A stretch of 64,000 nt of DNA from Candidatus Parcubacteria bacterium (GTDB taxonomy: Bacteria; Patescibacteriota; Minisyncoccia; Phycocordibacterales; Zambryskibacteraceae). The notes under the pieces were generated by a model. That model saw nothing but the letters and a program-made list of their open reading frames with translations, had not been told where the DNA came from and did no database searches. Each line of letters begins with the position of its first letter. Position 1 is the first letter of the stretch. Below, piece after piece: positions 8,282 through 46,477 of the stretch. The stretch lies in assembly GCA_019658995.1 (NCBI GenBank), contig JAIFWN010000001.1, positions 20,852 through 84,851 on the forward strand. The letters run 5' to 3'. Made by a program: the position numbers and the translations under genes.

Positions 8282-8579
8282 ATGGGGATGCCGGATAACC
8301 GCTCCGACGCAAGTCGGGGAGGAAAGTCCGAACATTCGGTTGTCTGTGTCCGCAATTGCGCATAGACAACAAGGGTAGCAGGTAACGCCTGCCGAGAGTA
8401 ATCTTAGAGGTGAGAACAGAAACGATCCGGTTAAGTCCGGCTGAAACGGCAAAATCCTTACCTGAATGCAAGGCCGTGCTCTGGAAGCAATTTCAGAGAG
8501 TGCCGCTAGAGGGCGTACGCGAGTACGCTCCCAGATAAATGGTTATCGATCACAAAATTCGGCTTATAGGCATCCATAA
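8282..8579 (+). ncRNA. rnpB: RNase P RNA (bacterial type A-like).
   Basis: There is no ORF here. The conserved P4 strands are present: GGGAGGAAAGUCCG near the 5' end and ACAAAAUUCGGCUUAUAGG near the 3' end (CR-I/CR-V). The P1 helix pairs ggatgcc (8286-8292) with ggcatcc (8569-8575). An intrinsic terminator follows. Confidence 0.85.
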
Positions 8580-8610
8580 AGCTCCTCTCACGAGGAGCTT
8601 TATGTTTGTG
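8578..8610 (+). terminator. Rho-independent terminator after rnpB.
   Basis: The hairpin is agctcctc-tcac-gaggagct (8580-8599), followed by the T-rich stretch ttatgtttgtg. Confidence 0.6.
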
Positions 8611-23134: not shown

Positions 23135-23188
23135 AGAAACAAGCGTTATATTAACATTTTTCGGTCAAAATGGTATAGTTTTGGCCTT

Positions 23189-32653: not shown

Positions 32654-33799
32654 CTATTTCTTTTCTACGTACGAGAGTGCCATCTTCTGTTCCTTGGGAT
32701 CGAAGAGGGTGATCTTGAAGGGGTAAGTTTTGCCCATCTCGAGCGTAGAGCGGAGCTTGTCCTCAGTGCCGAATTCCGAGACGTGTACCAGACCGGCTAC
32801 GCCTTCCTCAATGGAGGCCAGAGCGCCATGCTTGTTGTATTTGATGATCACGCCTTCGACGACGTCATCTTTCTTGTATTTCTCTGCCGCTTCCTTCCAC
32901 GGATTCTCCTTCAGTGCTTTTATCGAGAGAGAGATCTTGTCATCTTTGATTTCGATGATCTTCACTCGGACCTTTTCCCCGATCTTAAACATGGTCTTAG
33001 GATTTTCCACCAGACCCCAGTCTATCTCGGAGATGTGCACGAGACCCTCGAGACCTTCTTCAAGTTTGACGAAGATGCCGAAGTCCACGAGTCCCGTCAC
33101 TTCTCCCTGGAGTTCGTCGCCCAAGGAATACTTCTCAATCATGTTCTCCTTGTTCTTGGTTTCCGGGGACTTCTCGGAGAAGATCAGTTTGCCTTCTTTG
33201 GGTGTTGCGCCGATGATGGTGACGGAAAGTTTCTCTCCGACGAGTTTGCGGAGTTCATCCAGGATCTTATCTTTGTCGCCGTCTGAGACCCTCGGATAAT
33301 GCTCTGGCTTGAGCTGGGAAGCCGGAAGGAAGCCGGGGATACCCTGCCAGTTCAATATCAATCCGCCCTTGTTGGCATCGGTTACCGGGAGGTCGTATAT
33401 GCGCTTCTCTCGGATTGCCTCTTCGGCCTCGCTCCAGATGAGAGCTTGGCGTGCTTCTTTGAGCGATATTTCGATATATCCATCCTTGCCGCCCATGCCG
33501 ACAACCTTTCCGGCCACGGTATCGCCGACGTTGACCTTCTTGATGATGTCGCGCGCGTTCATAAACTCGCGTCCGAAGATGATGCCCGTGCCGAATGGCG
33601 GCAGGTCTATGTATATCGCACCCTTATCTATGGAGATAACCGGGCCCTCTATCACATCGTCGATCTTGGGCGGGTTAGGAGATTTCTCCACTAGAGAATG
33701 CATCACGGTGTTTTCCGCTTTTGTATCGATTTCAATATTTCTAACGTCCTCCGCCTTCGGAGTTTCCTCTTTCTTTTTTCTAGTACCAAATAAAGCCAA
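32654..33799 (-). CDS. rpsA: 30S ribosomal protein S1, short form with four S1 domains.
   Basis: S1-domain repeats are present (GDTVAGKVVGM.., GEVTGLVDFGIFVKL.., GVIIKYNKHGALASI.. with VHISE/VHVSE). Confidence 0.85.
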   Translation of the reverse strand: MALFGTRKKKEETPKAEDVRNIEIDTKAENTVMHSLVEKSPNPPKIDDVIEGPVISIDKGAIYIDLPPFGTGIIFGREFMNARDIIKKVNVGDTVAGKVVGMGGKDGYIEISLKEARQALIWSEAEEAIREKRIYDLPVTDANKGGLILNWQGIPGFLPASQLKPEHYPRVSDGDKDKILDELRKLVGEKLSVTIIGATPKEGKLIFSEKSPETKNKENMIEKYSLGDELQGEVTGLVDFGIFVKLEEGLEGLVHISEIDWGLVENPKTMFKIGEKVRVKIIEIKDDKISLSIKALKENPWKEAAEKYKKDDVVEGVIIKYNKHGALASIEEGVAGLVHVSEFGTEDKLRSTLEMGKTYPFKITLFDPKEQKMALSYVEKK

Positions 33800-33894
33800 A
33801 TTTTTGAGCCGTTACCGCTCCTCGCGCTCTATCTGTGGTTGCCGGAGCGAGAGGTGTTACGGAAAACGGGGATAATAAGAACTCAAGTAAATTA

Positions 33895-33936
33895 ACATAA
33901 AATGAGAAGCCCCGCAACACTCGTGTGTTGCGGGGC
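33895..33936 (-). terminator. Strong rho-independent terminator on the minus strand.
   Basis: A 12-bp perfect stem, gccccgcaacac/gtgttgcggggc (33909-33936), has a 4-nt loop. It is followed on the minus strand by cuucucauuuua. Confidence 0.7.
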
Positions 33937-34160
33937 TTGTGTCCCCACCAAGATGATAGACGTACTCAGGGTGGATGCATACTTCCGTACCTCTTGGTTA
34001 GCCGTGGCCTTCCTGTGCCCGTGGGCGTTGGTCACCGAGGTACTACCTCTCGTCCGCTGTTGGATGCGCGTTAGGATTGACGTTGGGAAGACGAAAGCGC
34101 TCCCTATATGCGAGTCCGGCGCGCCGCGAGGAGACGAGGTAATGCGGGAACTTTATCTGT
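33937..34160 (-). ncRNA. Candidate GC-rich small RNA (about 250 nt) on the minus strand, bounded by a promoter-like motif and the strong terminator above.
   Basis: On the minus strand, TTGACT (plus 34188-34193), a 17-nt spacer and TAAGCT (plus 34165-34170) precede it. There is no minus-strand ORF of 60 aa or more. The region is about 60% GC and structured. No match to an SRP, tmRNA or 6S core was recognised by eye. Confidence 0.25.
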
Positions 34161-34224
34161 ATATAGCTTATCATAGTCTAGTCTATAAGTCAAGCACAGC
34201 TGTGGATATGAAAAAAGCCCCGAA

Positions 34225-34710
34225 TTACTTCGAGACTCTGGCAAAAGACTTTGGCATTACGTTATAAATCGTACATGTCCTTTTGAAGGAGCTCTCACGG
34301 ACGGCAAGTTTGTACTCGTCGTCGGGAGGAAGATGGAAATCCGCCTTACTCGATCCCAATCTTACTGGCAGATAAGAGAAGGAGAAGAGAGTACAAATTT
34401 CCGTCCGGCCCGGCGTATTCAAGGGGAAGCCGCTGGTGTCCACTGCCCACCATGATCCTTCGTGGATTACCCAGTAGAGCTCGATAGCCGTGTCGCCAGC
34501 CACTACGCTTGGCTTATCCAGGTGGAATCTGAGACGCGTGCCGAGAGGCAAAACTGTGCCTTCCGGAACGGTGATGATCTTCTCTGCCGGGCGGCGAGTC
34601 TTACCCCAGGTGTAGCTCTTGCTAGTGAGTGGAAGTTGAACTGTGCCGCACCCGGCTGCGACCCATAGGCTCATCATAGTAATGAAGAGGGTAAGGCACC
34701 TTATCCGCAT
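34225..34710 (-). CDS. Putative lipoprotein (161 aa), GC-rich.
   Basis: The signal peptide ends in the lipobox VAAGC (MRIRCLTLFITMMSLWVAAGCGT). Confidence 0.5.
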   Translation of the reverse strand: MRIRCLTLFITMMSLWVAAGCGTVQLPLTSKSYTWGKTRRPAEKIITVPEGTVLPLGTRLRFHLDKPSVVAGDTAIELYWVIHEGSWWAVDTSGFPLNTPGRTEICTLFSFSYLPVRLGSSKADFHLPPDDEYKLAVRESSFKRTCTIYNVMPKSFARVSK

Positions 34711-35063
34711 TTTCTCACCTCCTTGGCGAGGGTGACAATGTAAGAGCGATGCAGAAATGTGAACTCGTACTTCTTGTCTACCTCGATGTCCATACCTTCA
34801 AGTATGCGCAGTACATGAGGTGCCGTGCGTCCGTCTTTGTACTCGTACCGGGTGAGGGTAGTGTCTGCGAACCGGCTCGTCCGCGTTACTATGCCGCACT
34901 CGGTGATAGTCGAGTCGGCTGGGGCAACCTCCGCACCGAAAAGATTTTCGGGCGCACTTGAACTCCACGCGCAGCGAGCCAGAGACAATGCTACGCAGAC
35001 TACGAATCCGAGTTTCCACGGACTCTCATACCACGGACGTGAGTCACCGCGTTCGAGCGGCAT
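34701..35063 (-). CDS. Small secreted or lipoprotein-like hypothetical protein (120 aa), GC-rich.
   Basis: It has a hydrophobic N-terminus (GFVVCVALSLARCAWSSSA). Confidence 0.4.
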   Translation of the reverse strand: MPLERGDSRPWYESPWKLGFVVCVALSLARCAWSSSAPENLFGAEVAPADSTITECGIVTRTSRFADTTLTRYEYKDGRTAPHVLRILEGMDIEVDKKYEFTFLHRSYIVTLAKEVRKCG

Positions 35064-35110
35064 ACTTCCTCCATGTTTAGAACAGCTCTGCTTTAAGTAT
35101 GTTCTTCCCT

Positions 35111-35153
35111 ATTTAAAATACAAATGGCCCGGTCACGTGTTGCGTGCCGGGCC
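35111..35153 (-). terminator. Terminator-like hairpin downstream of the 35184-35570 gene (minus strand).
   Basis: The hairpin ggcccgg-t-cacg...cgtg-ccgggcc (35126-35153) is followed on the minus strand by AT-rich auuuguauuuuaaau. Confidence 0.5.
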
Positions 35154-35183
35154 AGACGAACAATCGTTCGCATGCTGGTGCTT

Positions 35184-35570
35184 CTACTCCTTCTTGATTT
35201 TCCAGAAATGATTCGGATCTGGTACGAAGACGAGAGCAACGCTCGCGCGAAGCCTGACTTTCACGATCCAGCCGCCCGGAACCCTTGACCTATAAGTCTG
35301 CTCGTCCGGGCGGACGCCGATGGGATAGTAGTCTTCCTGAATCTGTTCCCAAATCGGTGTATCCGTGATGGTCGTGTCTGGGCGGATCAACTTTACGGTG
35401 TCCACCCTGGTTCGGATATGTGAACCCGGACCGCGCGGGATGCGATGACCCTGAGCTTCGAGTATTCCGGCTGAGCCGAGCACGAGCCCGATGAGGACGC
35501 ACAACGTGACCAATCTGCGCAATGGATCTCCTTGAAGTAGGGAACAGAGCAACTGCTTTAATAGTAGCAT
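35184..35570 (-). CDS. Secreted hypothetical protein (128 aa), GC-rich.
   Basis: It has an N-terminal hydrophobic segment and no recognisable family. Confidence 0.4.
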   Translation of the reverse strand: MLLLKQLLCSLLQGDPLRRLVTLCVLIGLVLGSAGILEAQGHRIPRGPGSHIRTRVDTVKLIRPDTTITDTPIWEQIQEDYYPIGVRPDEQTYRSRVPGGWIVKVRLRASVALVFVPDPNHFWKIKKE

Positions 35571-35627
35571 AGATGGTACTTTTTGTCAAGTTAATCTAAC
35601 TTTACCTCAATCAGAAAATGCTGGTAT

Positions 35628-36197
35628 TTGGGCTCAAAATATGCTAAAATAGGGTATATGGTAATTACCAAAGAGGGCCCTAACTCCTTCAAAATCTCCC
35701 AGGGCGATCTTGTCATAGCCGTCAATCCGGAGAGCAAGCTGACATCGACCATTACCCTTTTCAACACGGGTCGCGGAGTTGATGGTGATCGAGCCGGATT
35801 CGTCATCAATGGCCCCGGAGAGTATGAGGTCAGAGACGTTTCTGTAAAAGGTTTTCTCTCCGAGGGCGCCGATAAGAAAATCAACACTATATATATAGTG
35901 AACATTGAGGGTATGAACCTCTGCATACTGGGGAGTCTCACGAGCGCCGAGCTTCCGGCTGAGACTATAGAGTCACTTGAGGATATCGATATACTCTTCA
36001 CTCCGGTAAATGCATACAAGCTGGCTGTCTCACTCGAGCCGAAACTTATAATACCGATGAACTACACCCCCGAAGACCTTAAGAAGTTTTTGAAGGATGC
36101 CGGCGAGGACAGTGTCAATCCGGAGGAGAAACTGGTGGTCAAGAAGAAGGATCTAGATGGCAAGGAAGGAGATATAGTAGTATTGAAAGAGTCATGA
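35628..36197 (+). CDS. Hypothetical protein (189 aa), possibly a degenerate MBL-fold (UPF0173-like) protein lacking the HxHxDH motif.
   Basis: MVITKEGPNSFKISQGDLVIAVNP...IDILFTPVNAYKLAVSLEPKLIIPMNY fits an MBL-fold pattern without the metal-binding His residues. Confidence 0.3.
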   Translation: MGSKYAKIGYMVITKEGPNSFKISQGDLVIAVNPESKLTSTITLFNTGRGVDGDRAGFVINGPGEYEVRDVSVKGFLSEGADKKINTIYIVNIEGMNLCILGSLTSAELPAETIESLEDIDILFTPVNAYKLAVSLEPKLIIPMNYTPEDLKKFLKDAGEDSVNPEEKLVVKKKDLDGKEGDIVVLKES

Positions 36198-46413: not shown

Positions 46414-46477
46414 GGAGCCCCCGAGGCTGGGTTGTCTATCTCAACAATATCACAGACTAATCAATTAGTCAAACTAG

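Follow-up and report, generated by a model that had tools for sequence, protein, structure and literature searches.

The 64-kb window, as the whole stretch of DNA analysed is called here, derives from a Zambryskibacteria-like member of the Paceibacteria/Parcubacteria (CPR), and the ribosomal protein S1 that it encodes is 70-88% identical to the S1 proteins of 80 Zambryskibacteria-like MAGs. The segment of interest lies on the minus strand directly upstream of the S1 gene, rpsA (Table 1). On the far side of rpsA are two small ORFs and the plus-strand gene pth, which marks one end of the local gene order. On the near side lie three small genes of the same orientation as rpsA (p161, p120 and p128), followed by the divergent p189, p90 and gyrA. 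The neighboring ORFs correspond to NCBI proteins KW796_00265 and KW796_00270, encoded on a contig of 121,467 bp.

The three small genes form an ORFan island (34225-35570) with a GC content of 55-60%, against 51.5% for the window. No homologues of p161, p120 or p128 were found in 80 related genome loci, and among 5.8 billion clustered proteins p161 matched nothing but itself. For p128, the start as listed falls within its own perfect promoter, so the true start must be an internal codon.

Table 1. Coordinates of genes, signals and comparable sites. Positions are those of the window, except where a locus label of a relative precedes them.
Feature	Position	Strand	Remarks
pth		+	one end of the local gene order
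two small ORFs		-	between pth and rpsA
rpsA (ribosomal protein S1)	32654-33799	-	
rpsA structured 5' leader	33798-33878	-	covariance model R1, 66.9 bits, E 7e-15
rpsA promoter	33889-33917	-	overlaps terminator; same spacing as lineage consensus
rpsA extended -10	33897-33889	-	TG-T-TAATTT; -10 TAATTT at 33894-33889
rpsA -35	33917-33912	-	TTGCGG, in 3' arm of hairpin stem; the 14-nt spacer is the terminator U-tract
candidate unit	33895-34224	-	between rpsA and p161
strong intrinsic terminator (predicted)	33897-33938	-	14-bp stem 33938-33907, loop ACGA, U-rich tail
body of predicted transcript	33939-34158	-	~220 nt, 57.7% GC
candidate promoter	34165-34193	-	TTGACT-N14-TGA-TAAGCT; aligned with promoters of 8 relatives
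candidate -35	34193-34188	-	TTGACT, then 14-nt spacer
candidate extended -10	34173-34172	-	TG
candidate -10	34170-34165	-	TAAGCT
weak terminator-like hairpin	34214-34239	-	dG -12.5 kcal/mol; overlaps p161 stop codon
p161	34225-34710	-	ORFan lipoprotein gene, lipobox; stop TAA 34227-34225
p120	34701-35063	-	ORFan, secreted/lipoprotein-like
p128	35184-35570	-	ORFan, secreted/lipoprotein-like; heads p128-p120-p161 operon
p189	35628-36197	+	divergent; metallo-beta-lactamase-fold match (metallo-hydrolase gene)
p90, gyrA		+	beyond p189, same direction as p189
lineage-promoter site	35561-35589	-	motif scan; perfect match, p128 operon
lineage-promoter site	46444-46472	-	motif scan; perfect match, 133-aa secreted-protein gene
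lineage-promoter site	23151-23179	+	motif scan
ORF-free promoter-to-terminator units of relatives	L001:3361-3860, L006:3503-3835, L005:3365-3822, L042:3482-3848		

Signals bounding the candidate unit

The original prediction placed a minus-strand transcript between a promoter of the form TTGACT-17-TAAGCT and a very strong terminator with a 12-bp stem (33909-33936). Both signals are present, and each turned out to be better than described: the promoter has in addition an extended -10 TG and matches a consensus of the lineage, and the stem comprises 14 bp. When the candidate was compared with relatives by relaxed blastn, one short same-strand segment recurred, and this segment is the promoter. 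The aligned segment yields the lineage consensus cTTGACA-N14-TATG(C/A)TA(A/G)G(C/A)T followed by ATACAGA, and the candidate box agrees with the core TTGACA-N14-TGn-TAAGMT, extended -10 TG included. The box is followed by ATATACAGA and carries the conserved ATACAGA start-site block after it, with transcription predicted to start near 34158. A generic sigma-70 scan had missed the site, since TAAGCT and TATAAT agree at just 3 of the 6 positions.

The motif is enriched in the window. The pattern TTGAC-N15-TGnTAnnnT, with at most one mismatch, occurs 12 times in the window against an expectation of 2.57, and none of 100 shuffles reached 12. Nine of the 12 matches stand in front of a gene on their own strand. 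For seven of them this is an ORF, at a distance of 21-93 nt; an eighth is followed by a tRNA after 10 nt, and the ninth opens the p128 operon. Three matches in the 64 kb are perfect, those of the candidate, the p128 operon and a gene for a 133-aa secreted protein. The last of these drives a gene that fills its unit all the way to a terminator, which argues that the motif marks real units. By its sequence, the candidate box is a sigma-70-type promoter in a lineage variant with an extended -10. Support for a bounded unit is better than the original prediction could have known, since the promoter matches a consensus that precedes genes and a tRNA. More broadly, the lineage consensus and the general use of intrinsic terminators should help to annotate transcription units in Paceibacteria/CPR genomes.

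Hairpins followed by U-tracts are found at both ends of the unit. The one at the p161 end is weak (four G-C pairs and several G-U pairs), and it is followed by six U residues (34216-34211). The hairpin and its U-tract end 17 nt before the candidate -35 box, thus separating the unit from p161. The hairpin at the rpsA end has 9 G-C pairs in its stem, a 4-nt loop and a dG of -27.0 kcal/mol. No hairpin computed in the window is stronger; by comparison, the RNase P RNA gene is followed by a terminator of -19.9 kcal/mol and p133 by one of -17.4 kcal/mol. A census found 15 strong hairpin-and-T terminators in the window, generally at gene ends, and among these the hairpin in question has the joint longest stem and the most G-C pairs. 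Its tail, CUCAUUUUAU (33906-33897), exists on the minus strand only and predicts an RNA 3' end near 33899. Hairpin and U-tract together have the make-up of an intrinsic (Rho-independent) terminator, and are predicted to act as one. With promoter and terminator both credible, the predicted RNA runs between these two points and is ~260 nt long.

As a separate observation, the RNase P RNA gene of the window (8283-8604, plus strand; Rfam class A, 110 bits, just over the gathering score of 100) is closed by a 13-bp intrinsic terminator (8575-8604), so RNA genes here use the same type of terminator.

The rpsA promoter and leader

The predicted terminator does more than close the candidate unit, for it is interlaced with the promoter of the next gene. 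The rpsA -35 box forms part of the hairpin stem, the U-tract doubles as the promoter spacer, and an extended -10 follows; transcription of rpsA is predicted to begin near 33882. The arrangement recurs in several relatives (L001, L006 and L008, also L016 and L019), where the hairpin's 3' arm likewise contains a -35 of the form TTGCG(G/T). Of the 42 sequences with the rpsA leader described below, 35 have TGnTAnnnT ahead of it (at a distance of 10-13 nt in 33), and in 16 a terminator hairpin ends no more than 45 nt before the leader. Recurrence of a terminator that abuts or overlaps the rpsA promoter suggests that the hairpin serves as the terminator of whichever unit happens to lie upstream.

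Beyond the terminator, and outside the candidate RNA, the 5' UTR of rpsA is filled by a structured leader. It consists of two stems with an invariant GGCAA(C/A)CA loop, and its 3' strand includes the Shine-Dalgarno-like (A/G)AGGACCGG. RNAalifold, applied to a MAFFT alignment of 27 sequences, predicted 16 pairs, 15 of which show compensatory changes. Across 81 sources (the window and 80 genome loci), the resulting covariance model found exactly one match in each of 43, always directly before S1; 16 of these 43 matches lie outside the seed. Paired cells make up 91.4% of the model alignment; shuffles gave 70.2%, none of 500 reaching the observed value, and slid controls gave 35-55%.

Known S1 leaders comprise the E. 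coli type, which is confined to Gammaproteobacteria, and a putative cyanobacterial motif (PMC3616713). Neither of these matched in the candidate region (Rfam, E<=10), and the rpsA leader of this lineage, which has no match in Rfam, is apparently undescribed so far. It is likely a new S1 leader and a candidate autoregulatory element; as such it would be a candidate for S1 autoregulation outside Gammaproteobacteria and Cyanobacteria. The leader is a more solid finding than the candidate sRNA from which the analysis set out.

The slot between p189 and rpsA in relatives

Eighty genome loci conserve the order gyrA-p90-p189, then S1 and pth. The p189-S1 gap is a different matter: it ranges from 66 to 2182 bp in relatives, and of the 1.8-kb gap in the window only about 33800-33945 aligns with them. 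This aligning segment holds the leader and promoter of rpsA together with part of the hairpin. Taken by itself, the candidate unit aligns with relatives only in its promoter and at the rpsA leader/hairpin end. The body of the unit found no homologue in 160 syntenic loci (80 from genomes and 80 S1-anchored loci from metagenomes) by nhmmer, blastn or tblastx. The best of the S1-anchored metagenome loci has 88% identity, and the body occurs in none of them; an exact 24-mer from the body gave 0 matches in metagenome and viral contig collections. A search of phage DNA with the candidate gave no match either, and blastn and tblastx found no paralogues of the unit within the window. In all the data searched, then, the unit and its ORFan island are singletons.

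What relatives carry in this slot is varied. Small peptide genes are found in L016 (a 41-aa transmembrane peptide), L044 (62 aa), L008 (50 aa) and L039, all with strong Shine-Dalgarno sites and each itself a singleton, while L020, L036 and others have larger ORFs. In four further relatives the slot is occupied by ORF-free units that run from promoter to terminator (Table 1). Two of these are strongly structured, the ~500-nt unit of L001 (z = -4.84) and the ~330-nt unit of L006 (z = -5.53), and a block common to them occurs in those two loci only. The units of L005 and L042 form a homologous pair; every reading frame is interrupted by stops, and the lengths of their indels are not multiples of three. 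Rfam gave nothing for the loci of 15 relatives, and none of the units named here has a match in it; the ORF-free ones may be unknown ncRNAs. Single-sequence and profile nhmmer were both negative for kinship with the L005/L042, L001 or L006 units, and the idea that the window carries a shortened homologue of one of them was rejected. Nor is any other of the slot contents listed detectably related to the window's unit.

On this comparison of loci, the p189-rpsA junction is a hotspot for predicted orphan RNA and micro-peptide units, with fast turnover.

Possible products of the unit

The unit was originally described as giving rise to a GC-rich (~60%), highly self-complementary RNA. The GC content is indeed elevated over that of the window, but at 56.8% (33897-34160) falls short of that figure, and the self-complementarity does not hold up. 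With the terminator included the fold has a z of -2.08 relative to shuffles, and this is lost once the hairpin is taken away: the 220-nt body alone folds to an MFE of -64.2 kcal/mol, where shuffles average -67.1 (z = +0.61) and 146 of 200 do no worse. The plus strand is no better (z = +0.91). The idea of a structured RNA is thus not supported. Of the original proposal of a novel sRNA, the bounded, ORF-poor and independent unit stands and the structured RNA does not.

On neither strand do a start codon, a ribosome-binding site, gene-like codon usage and a homologue or annotation come together to mark a protein-coding gene. The longest minus-strand ORF encodes 47 aa (34035-33892), in line with the earlier statement that none reaches 60 aa. 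Pfam had no match for any small ORF nearby. The ORFs of the unit on both strands are absent from ~15 billion predicted proteins, among which the neighbors p120 and p161 are present.

The unit probably makes a ~260-nt non-coding RNA, to go by its signals and the state of its reading frames, and the candidate is most likely a fast-turnover non-coding transcript. The fuller reading, to which we would give a little less than an even chance, is an orphan non-coding unit, transcribed independently, that either arose recently or is decaying. RNA polymerase carrying the housekeeping sigma factor would start near 34158 at the consensus extended -10 promoter, transcribe ~260 nt without a credible protein, and stop near 33899 at the strong intrinsic terminator. 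The product would be a largely unstructured non-coding RNA, either left over from a small gene or newly arisen, with no conserved role in trans. Its most dependable effect would be in cis. Because the terminator lies within the rpsA core promoter, the geometry suggests that transcription arriving from upstream would end exactly at the rpsA promoter, an arrangement that would insulate that promoter and might also occlude it. There are arguments against a unit without any function: a reduced CPR genome is not expected to retain a strongly promoted 300-bp unit for long, and a promoter of perfect consensus argues for current use, perhaps for function.

One rival, in line with the original sRNA prediction, is that the unit encodes a functional, strain-specific sRNA that acts in trans, regulating mRNAs by base pairing. 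A promoter and a terminator without an ORF are the typical architecture of bacterial base-pairing sRNAs, and the candidate conforms to it: it is preceded by a consensus promoter of its own, ends in a strong intrinsic terminator and lacks an ORF. Perfection of the promoter suggests selection for expression. The unstructured body would then bear the seeds, one example being a C/U-rich stretch close to the 5' end, CCUCGUCUCCUCGCGG, and the RNA would be stabilized by its terminator hairpin. In these respects the candidate resembles enterobacterial sRNAs of the Spot 42 / RyhB type, which share its housekeeping-type promoter, a length of 50-300 nt, the lack of an ORF, a largely single-stranded body and a strong 3' terminator hairpin with a U-tail. 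It differs from them in being a prediction and a singleton in all data searched, with no conservation and no identifiable target. The one suggestive pairing joins CUCCUCGCG in the candidate to the 3' arm of the neighboring stem in the rpsA leader, CGCGAGGAG; the complement is perfect over 9 nt but at chance level (duplex p = 0.16-0.19). Nine nucleotides is also the longest complement to any of 58 translation-initiation regions in the 64-kb window, and 68% of shuffled candidates reach at least that length. The rpsA leader was accordingly dropped as a target, there being no parallel in L001 or L006. With no conservation across the 160 loci, metagenomes and viral contigs and no structure but the terminator, a functional trans-acting sRNA is rather unlikely, though a strain-specific base-pairing sRNA would be compatible with both of these negatives.

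Somewhat more doubtful still is a version that ties function to location, namely a functional, strain-specific regulatory RNA born in the rpsA-adjacent hotspot and transcribed in step with S1 expression. The coupling would be mechanical, as the terminator is embedded in the rpsA core promoter. If a regulatory RNA of this sort does exist, the slot would be a cradle in which CPR genomes, minimal in other respects, give rise to new genes for RNAs and peptides. For now the sRNA candidate matters little, as a singleton in an uncultured CPR genome without structure, conservation or target.

The peptide genes of relatives raise the question of a small protein. L016, L044, L008 and L039 encode peptides of 41-62 aa with clear Shine-Dalgarno sites in the same slot. 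The genes of the first three resemble the candidate in their p189-rpsA position, promoter type, length (180-340 nt) and a terminator abutting the rpsA promoter. What they possess and the candidate lacks is an AGGAGG or AAGGAG site, a start codon and a hydrophobic peptide. Two minus-strand candidates, both in one frame, could be considered. The 47-aa ORF begins with GTG, 10 nt after a weak GAGG, but it crosses the entire terminator hairpin and stops in the rpsA -10 box, and in codon score it falls short of the 5th percentile for true-frame windows. The other is the full stop-free extent of that frame, 86 codons (34152-33895), which spans the entire transcribed unit and hints at past or present coding. 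It has no ATG, GTG or TTG in its first 39 codons and would need a non-canonical start such as the ATT at 34143. Its codon score of -0.091 is equaled or bettered by 38% of spurious stop-free frames, and its GC2 exceeds GC1, the opposite of real genes in the window. Codon scores for this reading (-0.09 to -0.12) are in the range of spurious frames, the predicted peptide is not hydrophobic like those of relatives, and the minus-strand frame has no homologue and was never called as a gene in the ~15 billion proteins. A small protein from this unit is accordingly a slim prospect.

The original prediction had itself raised the prospect that the region is simply a 3' UTR without conservation, belonging to the gene at 34225-34710. 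Conservation is absent, as set out above, but with a promoter for the unit itself and a separate terminator-like hairpin for the upstream gene, a 3' UTR is not favored. The proposal would have the weak hairpin leak, the promoter box lie inactive, and the strong hairpin terminate the p128-p120-p161 operon; the low stability of the p161 hairpin and a body without any feature of its own speak for it. The weak hairpin is nonetheless followed by a perfect U6 run, and the box it asks us to disregard is one of three perfect motif matches in 64 kb and carries the ATACAGA start-site block. A comparison with 3'-UTR sRNAs of the DapZ / MicL type is instructive. Like these, the candidate has its promoter at or just past the end of a gene running in the same direction, and the last strong terminator in the cluster closes its RNA. 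Unlike them, it has no conserved seed, and p161 has its own hairpin and U6 before the promoter, which makes the candidate unit physically separate. The two accounts are in any case compatible, since read-through could add to promoter-driven transcripts; as the sole explanation, a long operon 3' UTR is improbable.

The plus-strand ORF (33902-34267) to which the original prediction drew attention does exist, encodes 121 aa, and begins at the terminator hairpin as described. It is the longest open frame in the region, and its GC1/GC2/GC3 (0.53/0.45/0.59) and codon score (-0.008, against -0.011 for p133) resemble those of real ORFan genes in the window. This likeness means that codon usage cannot decide the matter, and codon-usage scoring was set aside as a coding test without discriminating power for ORFans; the score of this ORF is equaled or bettered by 23% of spurious open frames. 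To be a real gene it would also need the minus-strand signals to be coincidental. It has no Shine-Dalgarno site, upstream promoter or terminator, its codons 2-12 make up the 14-bp hairpin, and it shares 43 nt with the 3' end of p161. Pfam has no match for it, HMMER against 1.84 billion representatives returned a single match that is a tandem-repeat artefact, and it has never been called as a gene. A plus-strand gene is very improbable.

A highly divergent housekeeping RNA missed by Rfam models is essentially refuted, although 220-260 nt is within the size range of 6S and long SRP RNA and no 6S, SRP or tmRNA was found elsewhere in the 64-kb window: the region gave nothing at the Rfam gathering threshold and, with permissive filters, chance-level matches only at E<=10, with none to 6S (RF00013), SRP RNA (RF00169 / RF01854) or tmRNA; ARAGORN found neither tRNA nor tmRNA in 33000-35000; and there is no counterpart at the equivalent position in 160 related loci, many of which lack the room, an absence that counts because a housekeeping RNA would be conserved. 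The earlier failure to match such cores by eye is borne out. To 6S RNA the candidate bears only the likeness of a non-coding RNA of about 200 nt, differing in that it is not conserved and folds no better than shuffles, its MFE structure being multibranched rather than a stable rod, or long irregular hairpin, with a central bubble.

A minor observation concerns the two long frames. The minus-strand frame of 86 codons and the plus-strand frame of 121 codons are phase-linked, such that their third codon positions coincide. The rough chance of a stop-free frame of this kind is ~0.04 for the former and ~0.01 for the latter, and the pair could be the trace of a decayed gene or an effect of composition.
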